Shown here: positions 7,969-25,365 of the stretch, piece after piece | How the letters are laid out: each line of letters opens with the position of its first letter | How positions within the stretch are numbered: position 1 is the first letter of the stretch | Assembly (NCBI GenBank): GCA_949298295.1 | Contig: CASFWS010000001.1 | Location: 2,627-31,104 of the forward strand | Source: an uncultured Bacillota bacterium | GTDB lineage: Bacteria > Bacillota_I > Bacilli_A > RFN20 > CAG-826 | Length of the DNA: 28,478 nt | Direction: 5' to 3' | Notes under the pieces: generated by a model | Told to the model about the DNA's origin: nothing | Seen by the model: only the letters and a program-made list of their open reading frames with translations | Databases searched by the model: none | Translations under genes and position numbers: made by a program

Positions 7969-8004
7969 TTGGCAACTTTGGCAACTTTGATAAGATATGT
8001 ACCA
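7969..8004 (+). promoter_or_regulatory. Sigma70-type promoter of the XRE regulator, overlapped by 9-bp direct repeats
   Basis: TTGGCA (7969-7974), 16 nt, then TG-a-TAAGAT (7991-7996) ending 8 nt before ATG 8005; no SD. Tandem GCAACTTTG repeats overlap the -35 and spacer. Confidence 0.5.
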
Positions 8005-9204: not shown

Positions 9205-9213
9205 TTCATGGAC

Positions 9214-9273
9214 AAACTTCCGCAAAATGGATGCATAAACTTCCGTAAAAACGATGAACATTCTTCCGCAAAT
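9214..9273. repeat. Three CTTCCGYAAA direct repeats at an exact 23-bp period
   Basis: CTTCCG cores at 9217, 9240 and 9263 (AAACTTCCGCAAAA, AAACTTCCGTAAAA, ATTCTTCCGCAAAT), plus a further AAACTTCCGC at 9521-9530. Confidence 0.7.
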
Positions 9274-9716
9274 CATCAAACAATCCCGATATTATCGAGC
9301 GAAATCGCTGTCTAAAACGATCGTCAAAATCTATATTCGATGGGATTGAAAGTAGCGATTTGGCAACATTTCGCCGATTGCCTGCATTGGACCAAGAGGT
9401 ACTCGCGTTGCTTTTCGCAAGATTGATATCGAGCGCTTTGGCATTCCGGCTGCTTGAATGGCTGTTGGACTGCCGAATTTCAATGTCCTTCCTCCTTTTT
9501 GCCAAAGGGACCGACCGTATAAACTTCCGCTGTTCATTTAGACTTTTATCCGCATGCGGGAAGTTTTGGCAAATCCATCAAGGTCATCGCTTTTGGGCAG
9601 TTCGCCTTTTCTCTCTTATTTTGATAATTGGCGTTGGTTCAAGTGGATGCACGGCAAACGCAATTTGAAAGCCAATTTCCGACAAGCCAAAAATTGAATT
9701 TGTCTGAAATAGCTTC

Positions 9717-10913
9717 TCAATCCCGATGGTAGACATCGCGGGTGAAGACTTTATCGATGACCCCATCGAGGGAACTTCCGATCCGATTCGCAACAATGAG
9801 GTCGGCCTTCGCCTTGAAGGCTTCGAGGTCGTTGACCAAGGCGTTCCCTTCATAGGACTCCCCTTGGAGAGAAGGCTCGTAGATTATGGCTTTCCCGCCT
9901 TTCGCGTTGAGACCCCTGAGAAGATCGACCGTCGAGGAAGAACGGAGGCCGTCGCTTCCTTCCTTGCTGCTTAGACGGTAGAAGCCGATCGTCTTCCCCG
10001 GGTTTTCGGCCCGATAGGCCAAGAGGCGGGAAAGAAGACTCTCCTTACGGGCCTCGTTGGCAAGATCGATCGTCGGGATGAGGAGGGCTCTCTCCTTCGT
10101 GAGGGTTTTCCCAAGTTCCTTGGTGTCTTTGCTCAGGCAGTAGCCGCCGTAACCAAAGGAGGGGTTGTTGTAGCCCTCGCCGATCCGCGGGTCGAGTGAG
10201 ACGCCATGGATGATGGCCTTGGCCGAGAGCCCGTGGCCCAAGGCATAGCTGTCGAGTTCATTAAAGAAAGCCACGCGCATGGCGAGATAAGCGTTGGAGA
10301 AGAGCTTGATGGCTTCAGCCTCCTCGGCCTTCACGAAGGAAAGGTCGACCCGTTTTCCCTTGAGGGGAGAAAGAAGAAGGAAAGCCGCTTCCTCGGCCGC
10401 TTTTCGGGCCTCTTCCCTTTCCTTGAGCATCCCGATGACGAGGCGGGACGGGGAGAGGGTATCTTCGAGGGCCTTTCCTTCCCGGAGGAATTCCGGGACG
10501 AAGAGGAGGCGGTCGAAAGAAAGCTTCTCCGAAAGCTTCCGGGTGAAGCCGATCGGAAGGGTCGAGCGGATGAGACACCAAGCCGCTGGATTTGTTTCCT
10601 TGACCAGCCGGACGACGCTTTCGACCGATGAGCCATCGAGGCCTTTCTTTTTGGGGTCGAAGTCGGTGGGGGTGGCGACGATGACGAAAGAAGCGTTTCC
10701 GTACCCCTCTTTCGGGTCGTTGGTTGCCCGGAGGGAGAAACCTCCCTTTTGAAAGGCATCCTCGGTGCTTTGATCATGAATTGGAGAGCGCCCCGAATTA
10801 AGGCAGTCGACTTTCCTTTGGTCGATGTCGACGACAAGGACCTCGTTTTCCTTACCGAGGAGAAGAGCGTTGCTAAGCCCGACGTAGCCGGCGCCGGCGA
10901 CCGTGACTTTCAT
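9717..10913 (-). CDS. ugd: UDP-glucose 6-dehydrogenase
   Basis: MKVTVAGAGYVG (NAD-binding), IVATPTDFD, IRST, VPEFLREGKAL, EAIKLFSNAYLAMRVAFFNE and catalytic NNPSFGYGGYCLSKD. Start taken at ATG 10913. Confidence 0.93.
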   Translation of the reverse strand: MKVTVAGAGYVGLSNALLLGKENEVLVVDIDQRKVDCLNSGRSPIHDQSTEDAFQKGGFSLRATNDPKEGYGNASFVIVATPTDFDPKKKGLDGSSVESVVRLVKETNPAAWCLIRSTLPIGFTRKLSEKLSFDRLLFVPEFLREGKALEDTLSPSRLVIGMLKEREEARKAAEEAAFLLLSPLKGKRVDLSFVKAEEAEAIKLFSNAYLAMRVAFFNELDSYALGHGLSAKAIIHGVSLDPRIGEGYNNPSFGYGGYCLSKDTKELGKTLTKERALLIPTIDLANEARKESLLSRLLAYRAENPGKTIGFYRLSSKEGSDGLRSSSTVDLLRGLNAKGGKAIIYEPSLQGESYEGNALVNDLEAFKAKADLIVANRIGSSLDGVIDKVFTRDVYHRD

Positions 10914-11033: not shown

Positions 11034-11768
11034 TTACTTCACCTTCTTTTCGATCCAGGCCCCGTAGCCGGCATCGAGAAGAGAAGCGTGGTAGCACCAC
11101 ATGTTCAGCTCTTTGGAGAACTTCCGGGTGAAGAATTCCCAATAGCCTTGCTTTTCGTTGGCCGCATAGTTTTTGATGTTGTCGAAGTAGAGGCGGTCGA
11201 TGATGATTTCCCCGAAGTCGTCCTTGGCGGCCTGGCGGGCCATCTTCGCCGCGTCGAAGAGGGAATCCCCGACATAGGCCAAAGGAGCATCTCCTTCGCC
11301 CGTTTTGACAATCAAGCATTCGGACGTCGAAAGGCCGATCCCGATTTCGAAGGTGGCCATCCCTTTCTTGTCGAGGCTCCGCTGGAGCATCTCGTTGAAG
11401 GTGTTGACGTAGATGGCGTCCTCAAGGAGGGAGACGAGGTCTTCCTGCCCCGGGGTGTTGTAATAGGCAATCATCTTGTCGCCTTCGATCGTGAGGCGGA
11501 GAAGCTTCTTGTTTCCGCGAAGGATGGCGGCGGCTTCTCCATAGAAGGCGCGGACGATGCGCGCGACATCGAGCCTCTCCTCTTCCTTGAAGAGGGGGGC
11601 GGCGTTCCTGATGTCGATGACCATGGCGGCCATCCAGCCTTTGACGCCGTTTTCCTTCAAGGCGGCTTCCTTGAGGTCGATGGAGTTGACGGTGGCGATT
11701 TTGGTGGTGGAAGACAAGATGGCGTCGACCCTCTTTTTGGAGGCCGCGTAAATCTCCTCGTTGGTCAT
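11034..11768 (-). CDS. Class III nucleotide cyclase domain protein (Pycsar PycC-like)
   Basis: Metal-binding motifs AMVIDIRNA and TIEGDKM, then IGIGL...LIVKTG and YVGD...AAKMA. Stand-alone ~244-aa cyclase. SD GAGGAG lies 8 nt before ATG 11768. Confidence 0.7.
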   Translation of the reverse strand: MTNEEIYAASKKRVDAILSSTTKIATVNSIDLKEAALKENGVKGWMAAMVIDIRNAAPLFKEEERLDVARIVRAFYGEAAAILRGNKKLLRLTIEGDKMIAYYNTPGQEDLVSLLEDAIYVNTFNEMLQRSLDKKGMATFEIGIGLSTSECLIVKTGEGDAPLAYVGDSLFDAAKMARQAAKDDFGEIIIDRLYFDNIKNYAANEKQGYWEFFTRKFSKELNMWCYHASLLDAGYGAWIEKKVK

Positions 11769-12293
11769 AGGCACTTCTCCTCTATTTATTTATCCTTATT
11801 CTAACGGCAAGTTTTACTTTTCGTTACTATTTCAAGCGAATCGATGATATTTTTCCGTTTTGTTACATGGTAAAGCCGATTGAAAGGTGGCGGAACGGGG
11901 GTGGAGGATCCGCCTCTCAATGGCCTCTGACAACCGTCTTGGAACTGTTCAGCCTTGGCTACAGGGCTACCCCTAAAATTGGCATTGGGCGACCGAAAAC
12001 GGTAACCGTGAATCTGCTTCTTAGGGGGGTGAAGACCAAGCGTCGGAATGGCGGTGGTTTCTTTACGAATCAGCCCCCTGGAGGTGCCTGTTTTTCCCGA
12101 ACGGAAAAGCCATTACCCCTGCCTCGGTCCTCATATAGAAGCGAGGCCGCACATTTCGGATTTTCGTATTTTTCAGATGATATCGGTTGTTTTTGCGGAA
12201 TATTTGTGCAAATTCAACGAAATTTTCCCAAAGTCTCAAAATACGGGCATTTTCTATACACTGTTAATCGGTATATCAAGTCAACCTTGAAAA

Positions 12294-12348
12294 TCCAAAT
12301 CCAAAATCTTTGAGGAAAGCGGGGATTTGCAAAGATATTGGATTTGGA
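12294..12348. repeat. 19-bp inverted repeat (18/19 match) with a 17-nt spacer upstream of the SipW cluster
   Basis: TCCAAATCCAAAATCTTTG (12294-12312) and CAAAGATATTGGATTTGGA (12330-12348). Confidence 0.75.
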
Positions 12349-12506
12349 GCTTGGCAATCAGTTTCTTTTGCTTGTAGAGCGCAATCGACAATGCAAGAAT
12401 TGTGCCAGGCGGATGGCCCCAATAGGCAAGGTGCGCTACTCGTCATGAGAGCGGCAACAGCGGCCTGTTTGATACCATCGTGCCCGAGCATTCAAAGGAG
12501 GTTAGC

Positions 12507-13328
12507 ATGAAAAAGCAAACCAAGCTCGAAAAGCGTCGCAAGACCGTACTGGGAGCCGTTCTCGGATTCGGCGCGGTGGCGCTCCTCACCACGGCCACGG
12601 CAACCTATATCATTTCCGTTAACAATCCGAGCGGAGACGTGAACGGCAACGTTACCGTCGATACGATCAAGGGCGACTTGGTCGAGTTGAAAATTGGGGA
12701 TACTGATACGACCGACGATCTCAAAGTGAATCTTGCCGAATCCGGCGAAGCAATTCCCTCTGATAGCTATGCTGTTGGATACGATCCCTCCAGCGGAAAT
12801 CCGGGTGCTGATCTTGAGATTACCCTCCCTAACATCACTCTTACTTATGGTAGCGATTGGTCCGGAGCTGAAAGTCCTAAGCTTCAATTCTCTTTGGACG
12901 AGGCTAAAAACGCTGCGAACCACCTAGATAGTTCTGATGTCAAAGTTCAAAACGTCCGTGAAGGTGAACCCTGGACTTATGTGGATGCTCCCGATGCCGA
13001 AACCATTACCGAGAAGCCTGGCATGACTAAGCAGACTAACGGCAAAACCACGACTTGGACGATTACTGGGCTCAAGGTCGAGTTCAAATGGGGATCCTTC
13101 TTTGGCCGGATGAGCCCGGCGAACTTCTACAATTCGAAGTTCTACAAGGCCGATGATACCGGAAGCTCCGCCCTTGACGGTGATCCGATAGGCACCCGGA
13201 AAGAGCTTACGGTCGACACCGCCGGCCATATTGTCGAAGAAATTAATGCCATGAAGACGGCCTTTGAAGGTGAAGGCGGGGGTCTCGTCCTCACTGTCAC
13301 GGCCGTCAATGGAGGAGCCGGGGCCTAA
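12507..13328 (+). CDS. Secreted TasA/CalY-like protein with a SipW-cognate-type signal peptide (paralog 1)
   Basis: SD AAAGGAGG before ATG 12507. Basic N-terminus, Gly-rich h-region and TATA|TYII cleavage-like motif. Shares F.WGS.FG..(S/N)P with the next gene and lies upstream of sipW. Confidence 0.6.
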   Translation: MKKQTKLEKRRKTVLGAVLGFGAVALLTTATATYIISVNNPSGDVNGNVTVDTIKGDLVELKIGDTDTTDDLKVNLAESGEAIPSDSYAVGYDPSSGNPGADLEITLPNITLTYGSDWSGAESPKLQFSLDEAKNAANHLDSSDVKVQNVREGEPWTYVDAPDAETITEKPGMTKQTNGKTTTWTITGLKVEFKWGSFFGRMSPANFYNSKFYKADDTGSSALDGDPIGTRKELTVDTAGHIVEEINAMKTAFEGEGGGLVLTVTAVNGGAGA

Positions 13329-13354
13329 ACATCGCCTATATCTAAATTAAGGTT

Positions 13355-14122
13355 ATGAAAAACAGCAAACTCAAAGGCAGCAAGAAGATTGCCTACCTCC
13401 TTTCCGGGGCCGGGGCCATTGCCCTTACCGGCATCGCCTTTTCCGCCTGGATTATCACCAGGGAGCCCGTGCCGGTCGACGTCAGCCCCATCAGTGTGAC
13501 TGTCGGGGACGTCGAGGACCATAGCGTCAAGATCCTTGAAGCCGAAGCCGTGGAGGGGCATGACTCCCTCAGCTTCGATGCCTCTCCGGGTGACACCACT
13601 GGGCCGATCGTTGCCGGTCCTGATTCGAAGGAACAACTTACATTCAAAGTTCAATTTTATATCAGCGGCGCCGTTTCGATCGATACAGGAACATTCACTA
13701 GTTGGTATGGCGGATTCAAGGTAGCCTTGTCGGTCGTTACGAAAGATTCGTCAGACAGTTCCTTGTCCATCAACGCTGCCGGCGCGGCCTTGAATAGCGC
13801 CGTTACCTCGGGCTACCTCTCGATGCCAATTGCTGATGAGGTTACCTTCACCCCTGATACTACTGCCCCTCAACACCTAGATACCGTTTCTGGCGATGGC
13901 CTCACTGCAACTTGCACTTCTACGGGAACCGCTGGAAGTTACGGCGTTCACGTCGAACTCAAATTCGCTTTCAGTTGGGGATCGGCCTTCGGTTCCGAGA
14001 ATCCCGGATTCACGACCGCCAGCGACGATTCCTCCCTAAACAGCATCAATGCGGCCTTGACCGAGTTGAAGAAAGCCTCCGGGGCCCATCTGAACGTCCG
14101 CCTGACGCCTCAAATCAAATAG
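13355..14122 (+). CDS. Secreted TasA/CalY-like protein with a SipW-cognate-type signal peptide (paralog 2)
   Basis: MKNSKLKGSKKIAYLLSGAGAIALTGIAFS|AWII signal; FSWGSAFGSENP motif shared with paralog 1; similar length and C-terminal helix-strand pattern. Confidence 0.6.
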   Translation: MKNSKLKGSKKIAYLLSGAGAIALTGIAFSAWIITREPVPVDVSPISVTVGDVEDHSVKILEAEAVEGHDSLSFDASPGDTTGPIVAGPDSKEQLTFKVQFYISGAVSIDTGTFTSWYGGFKVALSVVTKDSSDSSLSINAAGAALNSAVTSGYLSMPIADEVTFTPDTTAPQHLDTVSGDGLTATCTSTGTAGSYGVHVELKFAFSWGSAFGSENPGFTTASDDSSLNSINAALTELKKASGAHLNVRLTPQIK

Positions 14123-14196
14123 CCTGATCCAAGGCCAGGCGGCTTTTCTGGCGCTTCGCCGGCAGCCGGAGGTTGCCGCGAAGACGACCAATCAAC

Positions 14197-15177
14197 ATGT
14201 CCAGCATTGAAATCCTCTCGCTAATCGTGACGATCGTTGCTCTCGTGAGCCTCTCGTTCGTCTTCACCTTCCTCTTCCGCAGCTACTTCCGCGGAATCGT
14301 CGAGGCGGTGGAAAGCGGGGAAGAAGATGCCGAACTCATCTACGAAGAAGCGATGGGGAAGCGGGAGAAGACCCTTCCTCAGAAACTTCTCCATTACGGA
14401 GGCAAAGCCCTCTCCTACCTCGTACTCGTTGTTCTGGTCGGGGTGTTTGCCTGGTCCCTCGCCGCGCGGTTCATGGGGACCGAGATGTCCCTTGGGGGCA
14501 ATATCCCCTTGGTCATCGTCTCGGGATCGATGTCCTATAAGAACGAGGACAACCAATACCTATACGACAACGATCTGGACAATCAGTTCCAGACCTACGA
14601 CATCATCGTGGTCAACCAAACCGCGAGCCCCGACGACATCGAACTCTATGACGTCATAGCCTTCTATTCGTCGGACGGGACCGTCGTCGTCCACCGGGTC
14701 GTCGAGATCGTCGATACCTCTGAAGGCCCGATGTATGTCACCCGCGGCGACGCCAACGACACCAGCGACGCCAATGCCCTCTATGGGGACTATCTGCCTT
14801 ATCAGCAGATTGTCGGCGAATACCACGGAGTGCGCGTTCCAGCCATCGGGGCCTTCGTCCTCTTTCTTCAATCGGGAGCCGGCGTCGTCTGCGTCGTCTC
14901 CATCGTCTATTGCTTCGCCATCTTCGAGTTCTACCGCCGCAAGATGGACATCGCCATCGAGGAGCGGACCGCGAAGCTCTTCTCCTTCCTCGATGTCGAC
15001 GAGGTTGACGAGAATGCCGACGTCAACTTCACGGAAGTCCTGACCTACAAGGGAAAGGACTACGTGCTCCCCAATGGGGAGTTGCCGGTTGGGAAGGAGC
15101 AGGGGACGGCTCCCTCCGCCCTTAACGGGGAAGAAACAGAAAATAAAGCCACATCCACCAAGGAGGATCAGCAATGA
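14197..15177 (+). CDS. sipW: Signal peptidase I, SipW/ER (S26B) type, with extra N- and C-terminal TM segments
   Basis: IVSGSMS (catalytic Ser), DIIVV, DVIAF, VVHRVV (His general base rather than Lys) and YVTRGDAN. Confidence 0.8.
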   Translation: MSSIEILSLIVTIVALVSLSFVFTFLFRSYFRGIVEAVESGEEDAELIYEEAMGKREKTLPQKLLHYGGKALSYLVLVVLVGVFAWSLAARFMGTEMSLGGNIPLVIVSGSMSYKNEDNQYLYDNDLDNQFQTYDIIVVNQTASPDDIELYDVIAFYSSDGTVVVHRVVEIVDTSEGPMYVTRGDANDTSDANALYGDYLPYQQIVGEYHGVRVPAIGAFVLFLQSGAGVVCVVSIVYCFAIFEFYRRKMDIAIEERTAKLFSFLDVDEVDENADVNFTEVLTYKGKDYVLPNGELPVGKEQGTAPSALNGEETENKATSTKEDQQ

Positions 15178-16982
15178 AAGGGCTCTTCAAACGTGTCGAC
15201 GGGATCGCGCTCTCCCTCGTCTTCTTCTATTGCCTCATCGTCGGTTTCGTCGGGTTCTGCCTCGATCCGAACTCCACGATCGTGATGGCCTCGAATCCCA
15301 TTGCCTCCTTAGCGAGCGCCCTCGGCTTTGCCCAAATCGAGTCCCTCGGGATCCCAAGCGGCATCATGCTGGCCATGATCCTCGTCTACACCTTCCTCTT
15401 TGCCCTTGCCGTCACCGTGGAAGTGCGGCTGGCTGAGAACGCTGACGAAAGGCCCTATTCCGCGAAGTGGCTGTCGATCATGGCTGCCTCCTTTGTCGTT
15501 CTCTACGGCCTTGGCATCGGTATCGGGTCGGTTTCCCACCTCGCCTTCGAGGACGGAAGCACCCTCATCGTCGAGTCGCTGGCCTATTCCGGCGAGGCGA
15601 TGCTCATCGGCCTCGTCATTGCCATCGTCCTCTACCTCGCTCTCTTCTTCCTTGTTCTTCTCGTCTATTGCCTGCTCGCCAAAAGCAAGCCGATCGAAGA
15701 GCAAGTCGCTCCCGAGACCGAGGAAGCGAAGAAGCTCGAGGAACTCGAGGCCAAGGTCGACGAGGCTCTCGACGCCCGTAACGGCGATGTCGCCTCTTCC
15801 TTTGCCGATCACGGAACCGCCCAAGGGACGGCAACCGGCCCGCTTATGGGCAATCCCGACGATTTCTACGTTCTCGACCGGAACCGGGTCTTCCCCTCGA
15901 TTTCCCGCGTCGATTCCCGGGCTGACCTTGTCGCCGTCAAGGAGTTCAAGGACGACGAAGGACTCGATCTCCGCACATTGGCCGACGATTTCCGCGATTT
16001 CCTTGCCGGGACCGAGGGCCTCTACTACGAAAAAACGGCAGTTCGGGCTTTTATCGCCGGCCTTTCCGCTTCGCGCCTCATTATCCTCCAAGGGCTTTCC
16101 GGCACCGGTAAGAGCTCGATTGCCCGTTACTTCTCGACCTTCATCGGCGAGAAATCCTTCTTCGTGCCGGTCCAGACGACCTGGCGCGACCGGACCTCGA
16201 TCCTCGGCTACTGGAACGACTTCAGCAAGACCTACAACGAAACTGATTTCCTCGTCCGCCTCTATGAGGCCACCTACCGTTCCCAGGACATCAATGTCAT
16301 GGTCCTCGACGAAATGAACATCGCTCGGATCGAGTACTACTTTGCCGACTTCCTCTCGATCATGGAGTACCCGGTCGATGAACGCTACCTCAAGATCATG
16401 AACGTTCCTTATGACTTTGTGACCCCGGAGCATCTTCCTGACGGTACCCTCAAGATCCCGGAGACGACTTGGTTCATCGGGACGGCCAACCGCGACGACT
16501 CGACCTACACGATCACCGACAAGGTCTATGACCGCTCGATTGTCATTTCCTTCAACGAGCGCAACGAGCCCTTTGCCGTGAAGAGGACGCCCGAGCCCTA
16601 TTCGATTTCCTATTCGAAGCTCATCTCTCTTTTCGAGGCCGCCCAAGGCGACGCCGACAAGAAGATGGGCAAGGCCGACTGGGCCAAGTTCCGGAATGTC
16701 CTCAACCGGGCATACGAGGATTTCGAGCTCACCTTCGGGAACCGCGTTTACCACCAGATCGAGCTCTTCGTCCCGGTCTTCGTCGCCTGCGGCGGAACCA
16801 AGGAAGAGGCTCTCGACTTCATGTTTGCCGAGAAAATCGCCAGCAAACTCGAGGGGCGTTATGAGGATTTCGTGAAGGATGCCCTCATCTCCCTCAGGGA
16901 AGAAATCGACAAGAACTACGGGAAGAACGGCTTCCCCCTCACCCGCGAACGCCTCGCCCACTTGCTCCGGAGATTCCAATAG
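15174..16982 (+). CDS. Membrane-anchored McrB-like AAA+ (AAA_5) NTPase
   Basis: About 5 N-terminal hydrophobic helices (aa ~10-168), a helical linker, Walker A GLSGTGKS, PVQTTWRDRTSILGYWN, Walker B VMVLDEMNIARIEYYFADFLS and GTANRDDS (NxxD). ATGA overlap with sipW. Confidence 0.8.
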   Translation: MKGLFKRVDGIALSLVFFYCLIVGFVGFCLDPNSTIVMASNPIASLASALGFAQIESLGIPSGIMLAMILVYTFLFALAVTVEVRLAENADERPYSAKWLSIMAASFVVLYGLGIGIGSVSHLAFEDGSTLIVESLAYSGEAMLIGLVIAIVLYLALFFLVLLVYCLLAKSKPIEEQVAPETEEAKKLEELEAKVDEALDARNGDVASSFADHGTAQGTATGPLMGNPDDFYVLDRNRVFPSISRVDSRADLVAVKEFKDDEGLDLRTLADDFRDFLAGTEGLYYEKTAVRAFIAGLSASRLIILQGLSGTGKSSIARYFSTFIGEKSFFVPVQTTWRDRTSILGYWNDFSKTYNETDFLVRLYEATYRSQDINVMVLDEMNIARIEYYFADFLSIMEYPVDERYLKIMNVPYDFVTPEHLPDGTLKIPETTWFIGTANRDDSTYTITDKVYDRSIVISFNERNEPFAVKRTPEPYSISYSKLISLFEAAQGDADKKMGKADWAKFRNVLNRAYEDFELTFGNRVYHQIELFVPVFVACGGTKEEALDFMFAEKIASKLEGRYEDFVKDALISLREEIDKNYGKNGFPLTRERLAHLLRRFQ

Positions 16983-16991
16983 GGAGGGTCC

Positions 16992-18302
16992 ATGGAGGGC
17001 TTCGAGAGCCGGTTTGAAAAATCCCTGGCCGCCCTCATCGGGAAGCGGGCCGCTTATTCCTCCTTTGCCGAGGAAAAGCTTTCCTTTTCCTATGTCGACC
17101 CTTCGAAAGGGGAAATCGAGGAGCTTTCCTCCCTTCTTGATACCTTCATGGGAATCGCCCTCTCCCCGCATCGGAAAAGCGAGCCCCACGAGATCGTCGA
17201 GCGAAGCGAACTCGCTTCCTCTTTGACTCCCGATGAATTCCGGAAGACGTACCTCGACTCCTCCTTCTGGCGCATGAAGAAGGACGGCTCCTTCTATCCC
17301 GAGTACGTCTATGGGAGCGAATACGACGATAGCCTCCTCACCTATGAGAATAGGGCCATCTATTTCATCTATCGCCTCATCAAGGCCCGCCTCGAGGAAC
17401 TCTCGACCTCGGTGAAGGAAGAGGGGAACTCCCTCGAAAAGCTTTATCAGTCCCCCTTGGCCATTTTCCCCGATGAAGGCCCTTTGTATCTGGCCGAGAA
17501 GCGCGGCAAGAGCGTCGCGAGCTACCTCCTGAAGAAAAAAGACGACGCTTCCGGCCCCCTTCTCATCAAGGCCCTTGGGAAGGCTCGTCGCCTTCTTTCT
17601 TCCCAGTTCGCGCGGACGCTCGCGAAAGGGAACCACGAGGTCATTTTGCCTCTCCAGCCGACGAACATCCTCATCCACGACCCCCGTTACAACCGCCTCT
17701 ACCGGTACTACCTTTCCCGCCTCAGCCACGAGAGGAAAGGTTCGCGTTCCTCGCCTTATGTCTATTTGGCCTACCGTCTCCTTCAGGAGATGGGCAAGGC
17801 CGGCTACCGTTTGGCCCAGGAGCCGAACTTCAAGTACAAGGACGGGACCTTCACCATCACGGCTTTCGCCTTCAGCCTCGACGGCTTCCTTTACCACTGC
17901 AAGATCGACGAAGACGTCCTCCGCATCGAGATTCTCTACCGCGGGGCTGTCTACCGGCGGGAGGTCTACCTATACGACACCTTCATTCCGACCTCCGATA
18001 ACCGGGAGGTCCTCGCCAACCATTACGTCGTCTGCCTCCGGAACCTTTCCGGCGTCTACGACGGGATCCTCGAAGTCGATCCCTTGAGCAAGGAAGCGGT
18101 GTTCCCGCGCCTATTTGCCGCCCTTTCCCTCGTCTTACCTCTCGACGGGAAGGAACTCGGCCATTGCCCGGTCTGCGGTTCCTCTTCCCTCGTTTCCTCG
18201 GCCAAGAAGGAACTCCTTTGCCCTAAATGCGGATCGCTGGCCGCCCTTTTGGGCGGACGGGTCGACCCGGCCATTTGGATTGCCTCGATCAGGGGGAGAT
18301 AA
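16992..18302 (+). CDS. DUF2357 / McrC-like partner protein with a C-terminal Zn ribbon; no PD-(D/E)xK motif visible
   Basis: DDSLLTYENRAIYFI and NILIHDPRYNRLYRYY resemble DUF2357 motifs. It directly follows the McrB-like gene with a GGAGGG SD and ends in CPVCG-x13-CPKCG. Confidence 0.6.
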   Translation: MEGFESRFEKSLAALIGKRAAYSSFAEEKLSFSYVDPSKGEIEELSSLLDTFMGIALSPHRKSEPHEIVERSELASSLTPDEFRKTYLDSSFWRMKKDGSFYPEYVYGSEYDDSLLTYENRAIYFIYRLIKARLEELSTSVKEEGNSLEKLYQSPLAIFPDEGPLYLAEKRGKSVASYLLKKKDDASGPLLIKALGKARRLLSSQFARTLAKGNHEVILPLQPTNILIHDPRYNRLYRYYLSRLSHERKGSRSSPYVYLAYRLLQEMGKAGYRLAQEPNFKYKDGTFTITAFAFSLDGFLYHCKIDEDVLRIEILYRGAVYRREVYLYDTFIPTSDNREVLANHYVVCLRNLSGVYDGILEVDPLSKEAVFPRLFAALSLVLPLDGKELGHCPVCGSSSLVSSAKKELLCPKCGSLAALLGGRVDPAIWIASIRGR

Positions 18303-18304
18303 CT

Positions 18305-19090
18305 ATGAAGATCAAGAAGTCCCTCGAAATCGACGTCGACAAGATCGCCAACGACCTTTCTTCGAACGCCGTCTCCATCGTCGACGTCCACAAGTCCTAT
18401 GGCAGCCACGAAGTGCTTAAGGGCGAGAACATCGAAGTCCGCCGGGGCGAGATTTTCGGGCTCCTCGGCAAAAACGGGGTCGGCAAGTCGACGACCATCG
18501 ATTGTCTTATCGGGGCCAAGGATTTCGACCAAGGCGAAATCAAGATCTTCGGGCTTCCGATCGACGAATATCCCCTTGAGGTAAAAAGCCTCTACGGTTA
18601 CGTTCCTTCCGAGCCGCTGCTTTATGAGCAGATGACCGGCTACGAGTACCTCCAGTTCGTGGCTTCGGCCTATGGCCTTAGCCAGGAGGCTTTCGATAAG
18701 AACCTCGCCTTCCTCGATGGGGCCTTCCAGCTCGGGGAGGAGGCCCTCTCCCGGCCGATCAGCGGCTACTCCCACGGCATGAAGCAGAAGGAGGGACTCA
18801 TTGCTTCCCTCATCCATAACCCGAAGCTTTGGATCCTCGACGAGCCGACGGTCGGTCTTGACGTCATGGCCTACGAAACGCTCCTCGGGATGATGAAGCG
18901 TTACCGCGATAACGGAAATACCATCGTCTTGACTTCCCATAACATCGATCTCATCGCCGACGTGACCGATCGGGTGGCCATATTGAACGAAGGGAAGGTC
19001 GCGACCCTCATCGATTTCCATCGGGAACCGCAGAAGCGGAAGGACCTGAAGCTCGTCTTCTTCAAGGTCTATGGGGTATCGCTCCCATGA
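18305..19090 (+). CDS. ABC exporter ATP-binding subunit (ABC-2/CcmA-like)
   Basis: Walker A GKNGVGKS, Q-loop, signature YSHGMKQK, Walker B LWILDEPTVGLD and H-loop LTSH. Starts 2 nt after the upstream stop. Confidence 0.9.
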   Translation: MKIKKSLEIDVDKIANDLSSNAVSIVDVHKSYGSHEVLKGENIEVRRGEIFGLLGKNGVGKSTTIDCLIGAKDFDQGEIKIFGLPIDEYPLEVKSLYGYVPSEPLLYEQMTGYEYLQFVASAYGLSQEAFDKNLAFLDGAFQLGEEALSRPISGYSHGMKQKEGLIASLIHNPKLWILDEPTVGLDVMAYETLLGMMKRYRDNGNTIVLTSHNIDLIADVTDRVAILNEGKVATLIDFHREPQKRKDLKLVFFKVYGVSLP

Positions 19091-20703
19091 GCCTCCACAT
19101 CTTCATCAATGAACTGAAGGGCATCCTCCCGAAGGGGAGCCTCCTTTCGCGCGTTCTCAAGTCTCTCCTTTTCCTCCTCGTCCTCGCTTGCTTCCTCGCT
19201 CTCGAGGTCTATATCTATTTGGCCCTCGACGCCCAGCTGAAGGAGTTCTCGAGCTACGGTTCGGGCGATTTCCTCGTCCTCTTCCTCTTTCTTTATTTCT
19301 TCCTTTCGGTCCTTTCTTCTCTTCCCTTAGCCGACCGTTGCCTTTATCGCCGGCGCGACGAGGAAATCCTTTTCCCGCTTCCGGTAAGCGACGATGACGT
19401 CATCCTCGGCAAGGGACTCTATCTTTATATTCGCCTCGTCTTTTCGACCCTCTTCTTAGCTACTCCTCTCCTCATCGCTTACGGGACGACGTCGGACATG
19501 ATGCCGCAGTACTACGTCCTCGCGATCGTTTATCCCTTCGTCGTCTCCTTCGTCTCGATTGGGCTTCTTCTGGCCCTTCTCCCTCTTTATCACCGGCTCG
19601 CCCGCTTCATGAAGGGAAAGTTCCTCCTCCAGCTCGTCCTTGGGGTCGGGGTCACGGTCGCCCTCTGCTTTCTTTATCGATATGTTCTCGAACTTTTCCT
19701 CAATATCGTGCAGGGGAGCCGCCTCGACGCTCTTTTCTCGGCTTCTTTCCTAGCCGGTCTCCACGAGGCCTCGCCGTGGTTCATCCCGGTCAGCAACTAC
19801 TTTGCCCTCATGAGCGGGACTGAGAACGTCATCAGCAATCTCCTTTACCTCCTCGGAGCCATCCTTCTCATGGCTTTCCTCGGAATTTATCTCCTTAGCT
19901 ATCTCTATCGTTCGAACAAGGAACCCTCGACCGATGAAAAGAAAAAAAGAAAGGAAAAGAAAGCCTCTTTGCGGGTGCTTTCGCCCTTTCGGGCTCTCCT
20001 CAAGAAGGAGTTCATCCTCCTATTCCGGAACGGGAACTATCTCTTTTCCTTCTCTTCTCTCCTCTTCATGCAGCCTTTCCTTTGCTATGTCGTCATCTCC
20101 TCCCTTTCGCGTCTTCTATACAGCAACCTTGCCATCTTCCTCGACTTCTTCTCCGAGCTCCCCAACGGGATTTCTCTCCTTTTGCTTCTCCTTTTTGCTT
20201 CCCTTGTCTCTTCGGGGGCGGCCGATGGGATTGCCCGGGAGGAAAAAGGGCGTCTCTTCCTTAAAACCTCGCCCCTCTCGCCCATCAAGATGACCTTGGC
20301 GAAGCTTCTCCTCCCCGTTGCCGTTTCCCTCTTTTCCTTTTATCTCAGCGCGATCGTCCTCCTCGCGAGCGGCGAAATCGGCGTTCCCCTTTTCTTCGTC
20401 GCCTTCGTAAGCGGCACCTTCCTTATCGTCTCCGTTTCCAGCTACGGCCTTCTCGGGGACCTCGCCGCCCACTCCTACGGCGGGCGGGGCAAGGGGTTCC
20501 TCGGGGCCCTGCCGGCCCTTCTTTCCGTCCTCTTCCCTCTTATGGTGGCCCTCATCCATTTCTCCCTCATGTTCTTTGCCCGCCTTCCTTCCGCGGCCAT
20601 TTACGGCATCGAGATTGCCTTCAGTTTCCTTCTCCTCGTCCCCCTTCCCTTCGTTCCCCGGCGCCTTGACCGCCTTTATCTCCAAATGGAGGCTGGCATA
20701 TGA
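19087..20703 (+). CDS. ABC exporter permease (two-repeat, about 12-14 TM)
   Basis: Highly hydrophobic, with two repeats carrying LFPLPVSDDDVILGK and FLKTSPLSPIKMTLAK ABC-2 motifs and ALLKKEFILLFRN. ATGA overlap with the ATPase. Confidence 0.8.
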   Translation: MSLHIFINELKGILPKGSLLSRVLKSLLFLLVLACFLALEVYIYLALDAQLKEFSSYGSGDFLVLFLFLYFFLSVLSSLPLADRCLYRRRDEEILFPLPVSDDDVILGKGLYLYIRLVFSTLFLATPLLIAYGTTSDMMPQYYVLAIVYPFVVSFVSIGLLLALLPLYHRLARFMKGKFLLQLVLGVGVTVALCFLYRYVLELFLNIVQGSRLDALFSASFLAGLHEASPWFIPVSNYFALMSGTENVISNLLYLLGAILLMAFLGIYLLSYLYRSNKEPSTDEKKKRKEKKASLRVLSPFRALLKKEFILLFRNGNYLFSFSSLLFMQPFLCYVVISSLSRLLYSNLAIFLDFFSELPNGISLLLLLLFASLVSSGAADGIAREEKGRLFLKTSPLSPIKMTLAKLLLPVAVSLFSFYLSAIVLLASGEIGVPLFFVAFVSGTFLIVSVSSYGLLGDLAAHSYGGRGKGFLGALPALLSVLFPLMVALIHFSLMFFARLPSAAIYGIEIAFSFLLLVPLPFVPRRLDRLYLQMEAGI

Positions 20704-23096
20704 AAAAGACTCTGCCGGTCCTTCTTCTCGTCCCCTTTGCCGTCGCGATCCTCACTTTCGTTTCGATTACCCCGATCCGAAACCTCATCGCCGTCGACAT
20801 CGACGGCATTTCCTGGGATTACCTCGATAGCGAAGGCTTCAAGGTCGGGGAGTCCTACGAACTGAAGGCTTCTCCCATTTACGACGAGAAATTCACCTTG
20901 GCCGAAGGGAACGACCTCGTTTGGACAAGCAACGACGAGACCGTGGCGGCGATCGAAACTAGCGGCGAGACCTTCTACCTCGATGCCCTCCAGGAAGGAA
21001 ACTGCCGGATTACCTGCTCCAACGAAAAGGGAAGCGTCTCCCGGGCATTCCTTGCGACGGTCTATGAAGACGGGGCCATCACCATCGTCGACGCAGGGAC
21101 CCCCGCCTCGGGCGATAGCTTCGAGGAGACGCGGATCTATGGCCAGTACGACTATTCCTACGAGGGCGGCTCGCCTAGCAAAGTTGCGGCCGAGATATCC
21201 CTCTCCTTCGGGATTTATAGCGACTACGCGGGCGATAGGGCGACGCTGACGGCGATTTCAAGCAACCTCTCCTATAGCGACGGCGTCTTAACGGTCGAGG
21301 CCCCGGGGTCTTCGTATGCGACCTTCGCCCTCGAGAAGATGCCTTTCGTCACCGCGACCTATTCCTTCGAAGTCCTCGAAGGAGCGGTGAACGTCAAAGA
21401 TTACGAGGACCTCATGCAGGCGACGAACCTCTCTTCGGAAGGGGAGGCCATTTGCCTCCAGCGGAACCTCCTCTCCCTCAAGTCGACTTATCGTAGCGAC
21501 GGGAACGGGGGATACGTCGACGAATATCTGAATGCGAACACCCGCCTTTTCGGGCGTTACGACTTCTCGCGGGGGACGACTTCTTTCGACATCTATTCCT
21601 TCGATACGACCTATCCCCATGATTACCTCGACGATTACTTTGCCTTGAATCCCCCGAGCGCGGGGCAGGAAGACTACCTGAAGGTGAAGACCGGCATCCA
21701 CGTCCAGAAAGACTTCGTCGGGAACGGATTCTCCATCTCCTGCCAAGAGCTCTGTTACACCTACCATGGCGGCTATCTCGGGAACGGCCGCTGGAGCCCC
21801 TCGAGTGACGGGACGAACATAAGCGATTACTTCGAAGGCCCCCTTCCCTTCGTTTTCCTCGGGCCCTACGAACTCCAGGTCATCACCGCCTACGGGCAGG
21901 ACAACTCGGCGATGTACGTCGATGGCGATAACATCGAAATTTCCGACCTCAAGCTCATGGCCGTCGACAACGTCGACGATTTGAATCTCCTCGAGTACGT
22001 CGGCTCGACGATGGACGTCCTCGGGGAAAACGTGACCGTCTCCGACACCTACCTCCGGAACGGACGGACGGCCCTCCGGGTCTACTCCTCCCCGAACTTC
22101 CTTCTCGACAACTGCTATCTCAATAACGCCCGCGAGTTCCTTCTCAAGGTCGGGAGCAACGAGGTTAGTCGCCCCGATCCATCGACCCGGGTGAATGCCT
22201 CCTATCAAGGCATCGCGGCCCAAGGGAGCCTCGAGGAAACCTTCGCGGCCGGCGGCGGGGCCGACCAGATCCTCGATGCCGCGGTCCGGAGCGGAGCCGA
22301 CATCTCGGCGGCGATGGGGGCGATGAACGCCATCCAATCGTCCCTCGACGAGGCCCCGTCCCTCGAGCCTTGGGAGATGAGGGTCCGGGACGTCTATTTC
22401 GAGACGAGCGGCCTCTTCTCCATCGCTTTCGAAAGCGTCTTCAACGGCGGTTACCTCTATAGCGGAATTCCCTCCTTCGTCTCCGATCTCCTCGATACCT
22501 TCATGGGGGCGATGAACCTCAACTCGGTCCCGCCCGATCGAATCGGCGGGGTTTCCCGGCCGGTCGCCATGAAGATCGAGGGCGACACCCGCTTCTACGA
22601 CTACAAGGACATCTCCTCGATCGACGCGAGCTGCCTCATCTACGAGCAGATCTCAGCCATCCTTGCCGGTATCGGAAGCGGGGAAGGCGGAGACCTCACC
22701 TTCCCGATCGATTCCTATTTCCCGATCAAGAACCTGCTTCAGACCGCGGCCGAGACGGTCGGGGCCAATTACCGGACGGAGGAAGGCAACTTCGTCCTCG
22801 GGGCCATTGCTTTCTACGGCGGTGGGCTTAACCTATCGACAGTCGATGCCTCGGGGATTCAAACCTCGCCCTTCGGGGACGAGTTGAGCATCGATTACGC
22901 GACGGCTTGCCTTTCCGGCATCGGCCTTGCCGAAGGCAATGACCTCTCTGCCTACCTTGCCCGGTGCGTCCCCTTGGCAGCCGGGACCAACCCCTTCCGC
23001 TTCGTTTTGAGCGGAGACCTGCGACAAGTCGAGACGCCATACCTATTCGGGGAAGTGGCCGACATCAATGCGCTTAAGGCGCGAGGAGGAAACTGA
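20700..23096 (+). CDS. Large N-anchored/secreted surface protein with an Ig-like (Big_2-like) domain and a probable beta-helix region
   Basis: N-terminal hydrophobic segment; LVWTSNDETVAAIE...ALQEGNCRITCSN Ig-like motif; VTVSDTYLRNGRTALRV...LLDNCYLNNAREFLLKVG resembles parallel beta-helix rungs. ATGA overlap with the permease. Confidence 0.55.
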   Translation: MKKTLPVLLLVPFAVAILTFVSITPIRNLIAVDIDGISWDYLDSEGFKVGESYELKASPIYDEKFTLAEGNDLVWTSNDETVAAIETSGETFYLDALQEGNCRITCSNEKGSVSRAFLATVYEDGAITIVDAGTPASGDSFEETRIYGQYDYSYEGGSPSKVAAEISLSFGIYSDYAGDRATLTAISSNLSYSDGVLTVEAPGSSYATFALEKMPFVTATYSFEVLEGAVNVKDYEDLMQATNLSSEGEAICLQRNLLSLKSTYRSDGNGGYVDEYLNANTRLFGRYDFSRGTTSFDIYSFDTTYPHDYLDDYFALNPPSAGQEDYLKVKTGIHVQKDFVGNGFSISCQELCYTYHGGYLGNGRWSPSSDGTNISDYFEGPLPFVFLGPYELQVITAYGQDNSAMYVDGDNIEISDLKLMAVDNVDDLNLLEYVGSTMDVLGENVTVSDTYLRNGRTALRVYSSPNFLLDNCYLNNAREFLLKVGSNEVSRPDPSTRVNASYQGIAAQGSLEETFAAGGGADQILDAAVRSGADISAAMGAMNAIQSSLDEAPSLEPWEMRVRDVYFETSGLFSIAFESVFNGGYLYSGIPSFVSDLLDTFMGAMNLNSVPPDRIGGVSRPVAMKIEGDTRFYDYKDISSIDASCLIYEQISAILAGIGSGEGGDLTFPIDSYFPIKNLLQTAAETVGANYRTEEGNFVLGAIAFYGGGLNLSTVDASGIQTSPFGDELSIDYATACLSGIGLAEGNDLSAYLARCVPLAAGTNPFRFVLSGDLRQVETPYLFGEVADINALKARGGN

Positions 23097-23097
23097 G

Positions 23098-24201
23098 ATG
23101 AAAAGAAGGAATGCCCTATTGGCCCTGGCGGCTTTTGCCCTCGGGGCCTTCTCGCTTACGAGCTGCGGCTTCTTCGCCGGAAGCGGATCGTACTCGATCG
23201 AAGAGGTGACGGCGACGACGACGGGGACCGGGGACACGGTGGTAACCATCTCCTATACCGATAGCCGCCTCCCGGACACGACCTTCACCATCCCGAAGGG
23301 CGAGACCGGGGTCGGGATCGACGAGATCACGGCCAACGTCGACGAGGCGGGGAAGACGGTGACGGTTACGATCACCTATACCGACGGGAGGGAGCCGACG
23401 GTTTATAGTTATCCAATCGTCGAAGGGAACGGCATCGAAAGCGTGGTCTTCACCTATCAGGAGGGGAGCACGACCCAGGTCTACTCCTTCCACTTCGTCT
23501 ACACGAACGGGACGATCAGCGACGAGATCATCCTCCCGAAGGGCAACGGCATTGCCGAAATCGAGGCCGTGAGCAACGAAGGGGACGGCTCGACCGACAT
23601 CGTCATCACGATGGACGACGGGAGCGAGGTTTCCTTCAATATCCCCAAGGGCGAGAAGGGCGACCCCGGCGAGGACGGCTTCTCCCCGGAGATCGTCGGC
23701 ATCAGCCTCGGGGACGACGGGAACTGGTATCTCTATGTGACCCGGCCTGACGGCGGCACCGACCAGAAGCTCATCGAAGGGATGCCGACGTGGATCGTCG
23801 GGGAGGGGAATCCCAACGAGAATCCCACCTACGACGATTACGCGACCGGCTATATCTACGTCGACACCTTGACGCGGACCATCTATTACAAGACCCGGGA
23901 CAACGGCTGGGTCATTTGGGTCGACCTCGGGCAAAAGGCCACCTATACGGTCACCTTCCACGCCGGGGAGGGAATCATCGATCCGAGCGACCTCATCGGC
24001 TATACGATCGGGGAAGGGAATACTTATCTACTTTCCGTCGAGGAAGGCTCGACGATCGACCTTCCGACCCCGGAAGCCCCCTCGGGGCAATCTTTCCATG
24101 GGTGGTATACCTCGAGTGATATTTCCGACCCCAACGTCGGGAAGATGGATGATCTCACTCCGGTCACCCGGAGCCTCGACCTCTACGCGATTTACGCGTG
24201 A
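23098..24201 (+). CDS. Lipoprotein with 4-5 tandem ~40-aa beta repeats, a short collagen-like segment and a C-terminal InlB B-repeat-like domain
   Basis: Lipobox LTSC; repeats GI.EI.A......T.V.ITYTDG......IPKG; GEKGDPGEDG; DDGNWY; C-terminal YTVTFHAGEG...LPTPE...FHGWY...LDLYAIY. ATG is 1 nt after the upstream stop, with SD GAGGAGG. Confidence 0.7.
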   Translation: MKRRNALLALAAFALGAFSLTSCGFFAGSGSYSIEEVTATTTGTGDTVVTISYTDSRLPDTTFTIPKGETGVGIDEITANVDEAGKTVTVTITYTDGREPTVYSYPIVEGNGIESVVFTYQEGSTTQVYSFHFVYTNGTISDEIILPKGNGIAEIEAVSNEGDGSTDIVITMDDGSEVSFNIPKGEKGDPGEDGFSPEIVGISLGDDGNWYLYVTRPDGGTDQKLIEGMPTWIVGEGNPNENPTYDDYATGYIYVDTLTRTIYYKTRDNGWVIWVDLGQKATYTVTFHAGEGIIDPSDLIGYTIGEGNTYLLSVEEGSTIDLPTPEAPSGQSFHGWYTSSDISDPNVGKMDDLTPVTRSLDLYAIYA

Positions 24202-24234: not shown

Positions 24235-25365
24235 ATGAAGAAAGCTCTTTTGATTTTGACCCTCGAAAAGACGGTCGCCGTGACCAACGCTGCTCTCTAC
24301 GGAGCCATCCTCGAAGCTCGGAAATCCTCGTTTATCGAAGGGATTTACGGGGCAAAATGCGGTTTGGAAGGTCTTCTCAACGACGATATCGTCGACCTTG
24401 AAAAGGAAGAGAAGGAGGAAATCGAGAAACTCCCCTTCCTTCCCGGATCGATCCTTGGGACATCCGGGATCGCCCTTTCCTACAACGACTGCACCCTCGA
24501 GATGGAAGCCATCAAGAAAGTCATCGCCCGTCTCAATATCGGCTATTTCCTCCTCCTTGGCGGGGAGAAAACATCTGAGCTTTCCCTTTCTTTGTCGACT
24601 TCCTTCCTCCTCGGGGGAATCGAGGCCTCGGTCCTTTGCCTACCGATGAGCGAAGATAACGCCATCGCGATGAGCGACCATTCTCTTGGCTACCCTTCGG
24701 CGGCCATGCGTCTACTTTCGAGCGTCCGCTCGATCGTCGAGGTCGCCCGTTCTCTCCGAAATAGGAAGGTCTATCTCCTTTCCGTCGAGGATACGAGCAA
24801 CGGGAGCCTTTCCTCTTCCGCCTTCCTTTTGCCCGAAGAGGAGCGCCCCGACCTCATCTATCCGCTCGAAAGCGCGGCGACTAAAGAAGAAGTCCTCGCT
24901 TCTATTTCCGAGGTCCTTTCCGCGAAAAGGGAAGCCATCGTCTTGGCCGACCGCGCCTTCATCGAGCGGACGGGACTCGAGCAAATGCCTTTCGGGGTTC
25001 CTGCTGAGAAGATTCCCCTTACCTATTTCCATCGTTCCGGGCCCGAGGGACTTGCTTCCCTCGACGTCTGGGAGGCCGAGTCGGCGGCCCGGCTGGCCGT
25101 CCTTTCCTTCAAGAACGGGGAAAGCGGGAAGATGGCCTCGATCGTCCGCGAGAAGGATGTTCCTTATGAATCGAGCCTTACCCTCGTCCCCCTTGGGCAA
25201 GCCGTCGGCGCCCGTCGGCCTTTTCCAAAGGAGTGGATCGTTTCCCCAAGCGAAGGGAGCCCCGAGCTTCGTTCCTATCTATCGCCCCTCGTTTCCGGGG
25301 AGGCGGCCATCCCGCCCTCCCTTCTCCTTAAGGCCGGCCCTAACCTTCTTTATAAGAAGGTCTAG
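24235..25365 (+). CDS. Phosphofructokinase-family protein (PPi/ATP-PFK-like) with degenerate catalytic motifs
   Basis: The PFK pattern is clear overall (AVTNAAL.G, IYGAK.GLEGLL..DIVDL, PGSILGTS, DHSLGYPSAA, PDLIYPLE, GESGKMASI.R), but GGP, GGxDS, PKTIDND and MGR appear as LEK, GGEKT, PMSEDNA and EDT. Confidence 0.75.
   Translation: MKKALLILTLEKTVAVTNAALYGAILEARKSSFIEGIYGAKCGLEGLLNDDIVDLEKEEKEEIEKLPFLPGSILGTSGIALSYNDCTLEMEAIKKVIARLNIGYFLLLGGEKTSELSLSLSTSFLLGGIEASVLCLPMSEDNAIAMSDHSLGYPSAAMRLLSSVRSIVEVARSLRNRKVYLLSVEDTSNGSLSSSAFLLPEEERPDLIYPLESAATKEEVLASISEVLSAKREAIVLADRAFIERTGLEQMPFGVPAEKIPLTYFHRSGPEGLASLDVWEAESAARLAVLSFKNGESGKMASIVREKDVPYESSLTLVPLGQAVGARRPFPKEWIVSPSEGSPELRSYLSPLVSGEAAIPPSLLLKAGPNLLYKKV

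Follow-up and report, generated by a model that had tools for sequence, protein, structure and literature searches.

The stretch of DNA analyzed here (the window, 28,478 nt from an uncultured Bacillota bacterium) carries at 12507-24201 nine co-oriented open reading frames (ORFs), all on the plus strand, which we call genes A to I, using the same letters for their products (Table 1). The host genome is a 1.17-Mb metagenome-assembled genome (MAG) that is 82% complete. An initial annotation, made from the sequence alone, had described the nine genes as SipW/TasA-like fiber genes joined in one cluster to a membrane-anchored McrBC-like motor, an ABC exporter, and surface adhesins, and its gene calls and coordinates are correct, with all nine ORFs and every junction found in the sequence as given. 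Read directly, the junctions consist of ATGA stop/start overlaps between C and D (15174), F and G (19087), and G and H (20700), and of gaps of 9 nt between D and E, 2 nt between E and F, and 1 nt between H and I, which bears out the proposed translational coupling. A GGAGG-like Shine-Dalgarno sequence precedes most of the nine starts. Gene A begins at the ATG at 12507, behind AAAGGAGG, and not at an upstream GTG, and gene C more likely begins at the ATG at 14197, because a Met at this position is common to 67 of 74 homologues. Scans for promoters and terminators gave no signal above those of shuffled sequences that would split the operon.

Table 1. Genes A to I of the window and extra large-protein ORFs of three related loci (the latter numbered within their own loci).
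Feature	Product	Coordinates	Strand
A	Exported protein, 273 amino acids; A-type paralogue of the variable subunit pair	12507..13328	+
B	Exported protein, 255 amino acids; B-type paralogue of the variable subunit pair	13355..14122	+
C	SipW/Sec11-type signal peptidase I	14197..15177 (alternative TTG start 14173)	+
D	Polytopic membrane domain and NxD-branch McrB-type AAA+ GTPase	15174..16982	+
E	Cytoplasmic McrC-like partner, DUF2357-type N-domain and zinc ribbon	16992..18302	+
F	ABC ATPase, DrrA/ABC-2 type	18305..19090	+
G	Permease, ~12 helices, of the ABC_tran_2 / 12TM_1 / ABC2_membrane kind	19087..20703	+
H	Membrane-anchored protein, 798 amino acids, Big_2-like Ig domain and right-handed beta-helix	20700..23096	+
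I	Lipoprotein with Listeria-Bacteroides repeat	23098..24201	+
L045	Extra large-protein ORF	7444-9960	
L099	Extra large-protein ORF	14517-16835	
L108	Extra large-protein ORF	14901-17753	

That this grouping goes beyond chance is established by synteny in relatives and not by the window alone. Seventeen relatives, some of the same genus and some of other families in the order, supplied loci with a full-length D homologue, and tblastn with the nine window proteins showed that gene order is kept in all 17 as far as the contigs reach, with D identity falling to 38%. A scan of one genome per species returned at least 587 related stretches, the best 80 of which were examined; these are gut or rumen MAGs labeled as uncultured Bacilli, Mollicutes, Acholeplasmatales, or Anaeroplasmataceae, with Ca. 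Onthovivens, Ca. Enteromonas, Ca. Scatosoma, and "Staphylococcus sp. CAG:324" among the further labels, in agreement with the Bacilli/Mollicutes-like origin suspected at the outset. Sixty MAG loci had enough flank on both sides of D for a synteny count. In 54 of these C, E, F, G, H, and I all lie around D, at D identities down to 34-38%, and in 57 C adjoins D. The initial annotation had named chance adjacency among the findings that would undo its proposal; in this gene-neighborhood comparison the set co-occurs in 54-57 of the 60 loci, and chance adjacency of the nine genes is excluded.

The six exceptions to the full set comprise three loci with a diverged partner, two copies consisting of D and E only (L090 and L095), and one locus without detectable I. 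Three Acholeplasmatales-type loci gave no tblastn match to E, and the two that we read directly (L099 and L108) have a 360-amino acid ORF, E′, in the E position within a shuffled order that runs substrate, C, D, E′, I, substrate, large substrate-like protein, F, G, H. F is the most strongly conserved of the nine (47-97% identity), and I, present in 61 of the 80 loci, lies in the cluster every time. One pair of loci, L041 and L059, has a mosaic pattern of identity (81-97% for A, B, and C, only 51% for E, and 64% for G), which suggests recombination between a subunit/peptidase half and a motor/exporter half.

Recombination of sub-modules, as seen in that one pair, is what would be expected if a SipW-substrate module, an McrBC-like pair, and an ABC exporter with adhesins were independent units that happen to lie side by side, and each of these does exist alone elsewhere, as in the two D/E-only copies and in sets of SipW, D′, and E′ without the ABC, H, and I genes. 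We nevertheless regard such independence as very improbable, since it is contradicted by the same order recurring across several families at low identity; moreover, stop/start overlaps join C to D, F to G, and G to H, and the D proteins from loci with the ABC genes group together in one clade. Within the genus the window-type operon occurs in ∼12 of 22 high-quality genomes and is therefore accessory. Its flanks are housekeeping genes (ugd-like, pfk-like, and gpmA) and not a defense island. These flanking genes are common only to the two closest genomes, and in same-genus genomes without the cluster the flanks are not syntenic at the site compared.

McrBC is the textbook GTP-driven restriction motor, and the initial annotation recognized in D a membrane-tethered relative of its McrB subunit. 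By hydropathy, D has 4-5 hydrophobic helices (approximately residues 5-167), which a short linker, helical and charged, joins to an AAA+ core; the linker, of ∼25 residues, is variable, gap-rich, and unconserved in the family alignment (alignment A1). The core gives weak matches to NCBIfam McrB (1e-4) and AAA_5 (1.8e-4), and the best PDB sequence matches of the D profile, also weak (E 0.008-0.02), are the McrB AAA+ chains 6HZ4_A, 6UT6_A, and 7VSR_A, in alignments spanning the Walker A to the signature motif. Much stronger in value is the match to the PADLOC candidate model PDC-M26A (5.9e-39), and these results together uphold the assignment of D as a membrane-tethered McrB-like NTPase. The Walker A (GxSGTGKS) and Walker B (VLDEMN) motifs are invariant or nearly so. 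In the signature N439-x-D441 of alignment A1 both named residues are invariant and a D or E at 442 is nearly invariant; in a 92-sequence set that includes paralogues, 83 members match GTAN.D[DE], three read GTCNKDD, and five of the rest could not be read by text search.

Residues 1-170 of D are hydrophobic helices, and family library searches gave no domain match there and no N-terminal DNA-binding specificity domain. No FtsB/DivIC match was found in D with Pfam at E ≤ 0.01, and the membrane domain had no usable match in the ESM Atlas. The nearest annotated relatives of the GTPase domain are plasmid-borne pairs of an AAA protein and a DUF2357 protein, one of which adjoins a type I restriction gene. 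When the partners and peptidases of the paralogous sets described below were also scanned with PADLOC, the GTPase alone matched PDC-M26A; we therefore do not equate the PDC-M26 candidate system with the operon, because only its A component matches.

The product of gene E comprises a DUF2357-type N-domain (approximately residues 2-250), a poorly conserved beta-rich domain (approximately 253-383), and a CxxC...CxxC zinc ribbon (392-413) whose four cysteines are invariant among 46 homologues. Pfam detects the zinc ribbon only, together with a sub-threshold match to DUF2357 (E 0.17). In the AlphaFold2 model of E (me834541f2db7, mean predicted local distance difference test (pLDDT) score 84) the longest helix has 24 residues (118-141). 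The top four VIA-align matches of this model are McrC chains (Z 7.3-8.8), AlphaFold Database (AFDB) clusters named DUF2357 match E (best 8.4e-24, TM score 0.69), and the profile of E aligns by hhalign with that of a paralogue that itself passes the Pfam DUF2357 cutoff (probability 98.1, E 6.8e-14). Among the 46 homologues there is no invariant or near-invariant Asp, Glu, or Lys within residues 250-390, and neither Pfam nor the other family searches matched a nuclease family in E. Hence E is a nuclease-less relative of McrC, much as had been proposed from the sequence when a DUF2357-like partner without a nuclease motif was described. One AFDB cluster (A0A3D2N2X5, 993 amino acids, annotated "Signal peptidase I," rank 26 among the matches) aligns with residues 1-242 of the E N-domain; it may combine partner and peptidase in one fused protein, and its alignment hints at a direct link between the two.

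A major branch of McrB proteins with an NxD motif "usually followed by E or D" was described by Bell, Makarova, Wolf, and Koonin (eLife 2024, PMC11090510), who named the NxD-McrB/McrC sets linked to signal peptidases CoCoPALM, placed them among the McrBC conflict systems, and deferred them to a later paper. The class is given two sentences there, with no analysis or experiment, and is independently read as linked to pilus assembly (PMC11090510). We found in the literature no later paper that uses the term and none that links SipW/TasA operons to McrB. The operon described here is an elaborated form of this class, with which it shares a membrane-anchored NxD McrB-type GTPase, a nuclease-inactive McrC-like (DUF2357) partner, an obligatory link to genes of the signal peptidase family, and occurrence in Bacillota. 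The anchor of D appears to differ, being by hydropathy a membrane domain of 4-5 helices, against one FtsB-like helix followed by a long coiled coil in the published class. Further differences are that E ends in a zinc ribbon and has no long coiled coil (as judged from its longest modeled helix, no dedicated coiled-coil predictor having been run) and that the operon also includes an ABC-2 exporter, a membrane protein with Big_2 and beta-helix regions, and a lipoprotein. The view of the initial annotation that no described system has this composition thus fails for the core, which was named in 2024, but holds for the full set of nine genes, which still appears undescribed because the two published sentences mention no ABC exporter, beta-helix protein, or lipoprotein (PMC11090510).

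Compared with McrBC itself (McrB/McrC of E. coli and of T. gammatolerans, PDB 6UT5, 6UT6, and 6HZ4), the D/E pair retains the AAA+ GTPase core with its Walker A and B motifs and sensor-1 Asn motif, the partner retains the McrC N-terminal domain, which in McrBC inserts into the McrB ring, and the two genes are likewise adjacent and coupled. In contrast to McrBC, D has a membrane domain in place of the DNA reader and an NxD motif instead of NxxD, E lacks the conserved PD-(D/E)xK residues, and the genes lie inside an envelope operon.

With such an ancestry, and with the PADLOC match at 5.9e-39, the operon might be an envelope-linked conflict or defense device, in which the McrBC-derived pair would watch the membrane or a surface structure that serves as a phage receptor and would respond through the ABC transporter or the membrane domain, while A and B would vary in an arms race with phage. 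This would suit the nearest annotated GTPase relatives, with their plasmid-borne AAA and DUF2357 genes and the restriction gene beside one of them, the placement of the class among conflict systems (PMC11090510), the patchy presence in the genus, and the hypervariability of A and B. What makes us consider it unlikely is that Pfam, NCBIfam, and PADLOC scans of the nine proteins revealed no nuclease, HEPN, toxin, or other recognizable effector domain, that E has no conserved acidic or Lys residues at the position of the McrC nuclease, and that the operon is flanked by housekeeping genes; furthermore, seven of the nine genes encode envelope or export proteins in an order fixed across families of the order, and PDC-M26 is itself a candidate system, matched in one component.

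Turning to the peptidase, C matches NCBIfam SipW (4.6e-19) and scores 53 bits against TIGR02228, just above the cutoff of 51.85, and its residues S119, H174, D193, and D199 are invariant in all 74 homologues. With the catalytic Ser, His, and Asp in place, C is predicted to be an active SipW-type peptidase, in line with the initial assignment. It has three hydrophobic segments, including an extra conserved N-terminal membrane helix, as well as a C-terminal tail. A LepB-type signal peptidase is encoded on a different contig of the genome, which makes C an extra enzyme with a dedicated task.

The two proteins encoded upstream of the peptidase, A and B, each have a basic N terminus and a single hydrophobic segment, at the end of which lies a conserved small-residue/aromatic motif. 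In A this segment covers residues 14-32 and ends in TATATYII, and a motif F.WG..F...SPA.FYN is found at the C terminus; the N-terminal signal of B ends in GIAFSAWII. The family consensus (alignment A3) reads TGFAxWII, followed by a V.V..V.D stretch, with F.WG..F...NP near the C terminus. By eye the signal motif resembles the SipW-cognate signal; the signal model TIGR04088, a hidden Markov model (HMM) whose use the initial annotation had suggested, has no match among 57 members of the A/B family at E ≤ 1. The AlphaFold2 model of B (m5d14b955990b, pLDDT 83) is an Ig-like beta-sandwich with two helices, in which residues 31-58 are poorly packed, and the nearest shapes in the ESM Atlas are clusters auto-named "SipW-cognate class signal peptide" (TM score 0.50-0.59). 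It is plausible that A and B are SipW substrates.

A relationship to TasA was also considered, since the fiber genes had been called TasA-like. No TasA chain appears in the top 50 of the 48,161 chains compared with the B model, whose best match (Z 6.6) is to generic Ig domains, no Pfam family, including TasA/camelysin (Peptidase_M73), matches A or B, and the A3 profile has no match among PDB sequences. We therefore rejected homology of A and B to TasA, and the earlier label is replaced by that of a generic Ig sandwich. Comparison by hhalign with the canonical-signal protein of a paralogous locus likewise found nothing beyond the signal region. The operons tapA-sipW-tasA of B. subtilis, sipW-tasA-calY of B. 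cereus, and sipW-bsaABC of C. perfringens nonetheless offer a parallel, in that a dedicated SipW-type peptidase stands beside two paralogous exported beta-sandwich proteins whose signals end in small residues and then an aromatic residue; they differ in that A and B are not of the TasA/camelysin fold or family by the tests run and in that the known operons have no NTPase, McrC-like protein, or ABC exporter.

The most striking property of A and B is their variability. In comparison with the nearest relative (L030), which has a D of 92% identity, identity is 85-97% for C to I but only 40% for A and 36% for B. The DNA alignment between the two loci is continuous at 81-88% except at 12627-13353 and 13460-14196, which are the mature parts of A and B; the segment 12161-12626, which includes the signal-coding 5′ end of A, is 87.6% identical, and within B only 13354-13459 aligns at the DNA level. 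The GC content of the mature-part stretch is 0.49, against ∼0.57 around it, and the boundaries are cassette-like. Across 57 close pairs A and B are in nearly all cases the most diverged genes. By analogy, this pattern is that of exposed subunits such as pilins or flagellins, in which the assembly end is conserved and the body is replaced or diversifies.

A search of the host genome with an HMM covering 60 N-terminal alignment columns found four further ORFs, on contigs C9, C11, C40, and C58, that share the N-terminal signal of A and B (..GFS[TS][WFY][ILV]..); it is therefore probable that C acts on a small group of substrates and not on A and B alone. One of the four is a 574-amino acid protein that appears beta-helix-like by eye. 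In some related loci an extra protein of 770-950 amino acids with a similar hydrophobic N-terminal signal is encoded between C and D or before F (Table 1), and these large proteins are possibly tip or adhesin components.

These features of C and its presumed substrates bear on a second alternative, in which D and E form a GTP-dependent switch or checkpoint that, from within the cytoplasm, gates C or the ABC exporter, responding for instance to nucleotide status, and A, B, and the other substrates are monomeric variable antigens or adhesins. The monomer model of B looks like a complete sandwich, TasA-type fibers assemble without energy, and C carries cytoplasmic and membrane extensions that are specific to its family and conserved in it, with its translation coupled to that of D, all of which would fit a gate, as would the hint of a peptidase-partner link in the 993-amino acid AFDB cluster. 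Set against this, A-type and B-type paralogues are paired in most loci and, with the conserved strand motif that would follow cleavage, resemble major and minor fiber subunits, and McrB-family proteins are processive hexameric motors stimulated by McrC (Niu et al. 2020, as cited in PMC11090510). On balance we think a switch of this kind improbable.

Downstream of the D/E pair, F matches Pfam ABC_tran (2e-21) and TIGR01188 drrA (1.6e-45), and G, with ∼12 hydrophobic segments, scores above the cutoff of PF16949 (28.5 bits) and has ESM Atlas feature neighbors that carry 12TM_1, ABC_tran_2, and ABC2_membrane. An ATPase and a multi-helix permease encoded together, the latter with ATGA overlaps on both sides, make up the pattern of an ABC-2-type exporter, and the exporter anticipated from the sequence is thus confirmed at the level of domains. 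The large protein H has an N-terminal membrane helix with an invariant Pro-Phe and, further, invariant GNG and GQDN motifs. Its Big_2 domain is weak in Pfam and appears also among its ESM Atlas neighbors, and Pfam Beta_helix is found in seven of 50 H homologues (best 2.5e-5); a profile search of H against the PDB gave only spurious Ig (nanobody) matches to the Big_2-like region. The last protein, I, has the lipobox LTSC, short beta-rich repeats, and a C-terminal Listeria-Bacteroides repeat that scores 30 bits against Pfam Flg_new, above the cutoff. With a membrane-anchored H and a lipoprotein I, the expectation that the cluster encodes surface proteins also stands.

In addition, the same genomes have between one and four other D-like genes, and 12 of these loci were fetched. 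Several have the plain CoCoPALM layout, in which the gene for a protein bearing a canonical ..GSTYAWFS or SATYAAFSD signal is followed by those for a SipW-type peptidase, a membrane McrB of ∼520-630 amino acids, and a DUF2357 partner, and in the 12 loci no set includes the ABC, H, or I genes. The similarity of the ∼520-amino acid paralogues to D starts only near the last membrane helix of D. In a tree of GTPase domains the D proteins of ABC-containing loci form a single clade, with the two D/E-only copies nested inside, and the ∼520- and ∼890-amino acid paralogues form two others; because its D proteins form a clade of their own, the window operon is a distinct, elaborated lineage of the class. 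At one paralogous locus (L115:13206-15749) a GGDEF-EAL gene, for the turnover of cyclic di-GMP, lies directly 3′ of the SipW/membrane-McrB/DUF2357 set, a neighbor that fits regulation of a surface structure.

The cells in which the operon is found are probably wall-less. None of 36 genomes of the genus, 22 of them at least 90% complete, has a penicillin-binding protein (PBP) transpeptidase domain, and several other families of the order have 2-4 PBP transpeptidase domains each. No sortase was found in the host genome. If the cells do lack a wall, surface structures must be membrane-held.

Considering the locus as a whole, we give an even chance to the reading that the nine genes form one conserved, accessory operon that makes a variable, GTP-coupled cell-surface fiber or coat in small-genome gut Bacilli (RF39/"Mollicutes"-like MAGs). 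A and B, and the dispersed carriers of the xGF(A/S)x(W/Y/F)(I/V/L) signal, would be exported by Sec and held in the membrane by this conserved N-terminal signal until C cuts after the small-residue motif. Cleavage, at what we take to be this site, would free an N-terminal strand, the V.V..V.D stretch that is poorly packed in the monomer model, for insertion into the Ig-like sandwich of the next subunit, a mode of polymerization modeled on other SipW-dependent fibers. D would be a GTPase hexamer held at the membrane by its own polytopic domain, and E would plug it as McrC plugs McrB. Since the DNA reader and nuclease have been lost, the pair would act on the protein/membrane side, where it may couple GTP hydrolysis to the hand-over, polymerization, or anchoring of processed subunits. 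The ABC-2 pair F/G, the ATGA-coupled H, and the lipoprotein I would then make up the outer part of the apparatus.

In this arrangement D, E, and C would functionally resemble the ATPase-platform-peptidase trio of type IV pili (PilB, PilC, and PilD). The likeness is one of logic only: each scheme has a special N-terminal signal with a peptidase of its own, a hexameric NTPase in the cytoplasm, a polytopic part in the membrane, and subunits that are conserved at the N terminus and variable in the body. There is no homology, as C is a type I (Sec11/SipW) peptidase that cuts after the hydrophobic segment, and the NTPase D belongs to the McrB family and not to that of PilB/GspE. A bolder version of the fiber reading holds that the operon encodes a new surface-filament machine, in which the membrane-anchored, McrB-derived GTPase hexamer, activated by the nuclease-less McrC, drives or gates the polymerization of peptidase-processed Ig-like subunits, with the ABC-2 exporter and the beta-helix protein as outer parts, and that this is the main surface appendage of wall-less gut Bacilli. 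We offer this tentatively and think it rather unlikely in full; if true, it would be a route to filaments distinct from type IV, sortase, chaperone-usher, curli, and TasA-type assembly.

Several points weigh against a GTP-coupled fiber or coat. To our knowledge the known SipW-dependent fibers (TasA and BsaA) need no NTPase, which leaves the requirement for a motor unexplained. The A and B proteins are not of the TasA fold and are unmatched by TIGR04088, and polymerization is proposed by analogy only; the roles given to F, G, H, and I are guesses from the kind of domain present. The patchy distribution (∼12 of 22 genomes) and the match of D relatives to a PADLOC defense candidate would also fit a conflict system. 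Finally, the sequencing runs listed as containing the locus are DNA metagenomes only, with no RNA run among them.

Whichever way the operon acts, it fixes McrBC-type subunits that have no DNA reader or nuclease, and that have a membrane anchor, within an envelope operon, a clear example of a defense motor taken into service at the cell surface, or of the opposite move. The hosts, RF39-like gut Bacilli with small genomes and apparently no cell wall, form an uncultured lineage that is common in the guts of animals and humans. The hypervariable cassette marks A and B as an exposed, selected face of these cells, and they are therefore candidates for a role in adhesion, for recognition by the immune system or by phage, and for use in strain typing. 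As the CoCoPALM class has been named but not studied at the bench, any bench result on it would be new.

Some smaller features of the locus may concern its expression. A weak hairpin at about 14122-14140, directly 3′ of the B stop and 5′ of C, could reduce read-through from the subunit genes into the machinery genes; a consensus scan called it on the minus strand only. Upstream of A lies an unusually long non-coding leader of ∼730 nt (11775-12506), in which a GC-rich part of 285 nt (11876-12160) is unique in the genome, is not conserved in the nearest relative, and has no significant fold (z-score -0.83). No riboswitch, for cyclic di-GMP or any other ligand, was matched 5′ of A by Rfam, either over the window at gathering scores or over 11700-12600 at E ≤ 1. 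The leader separates A from a divergent class III cyclase-like gene (11034-11774, minus strand), which flanks the operon and is 95% identical in the nearest relative, and on the other side the operon is flanked by the PFK-like gene at 24235-25365 on the plus strand.

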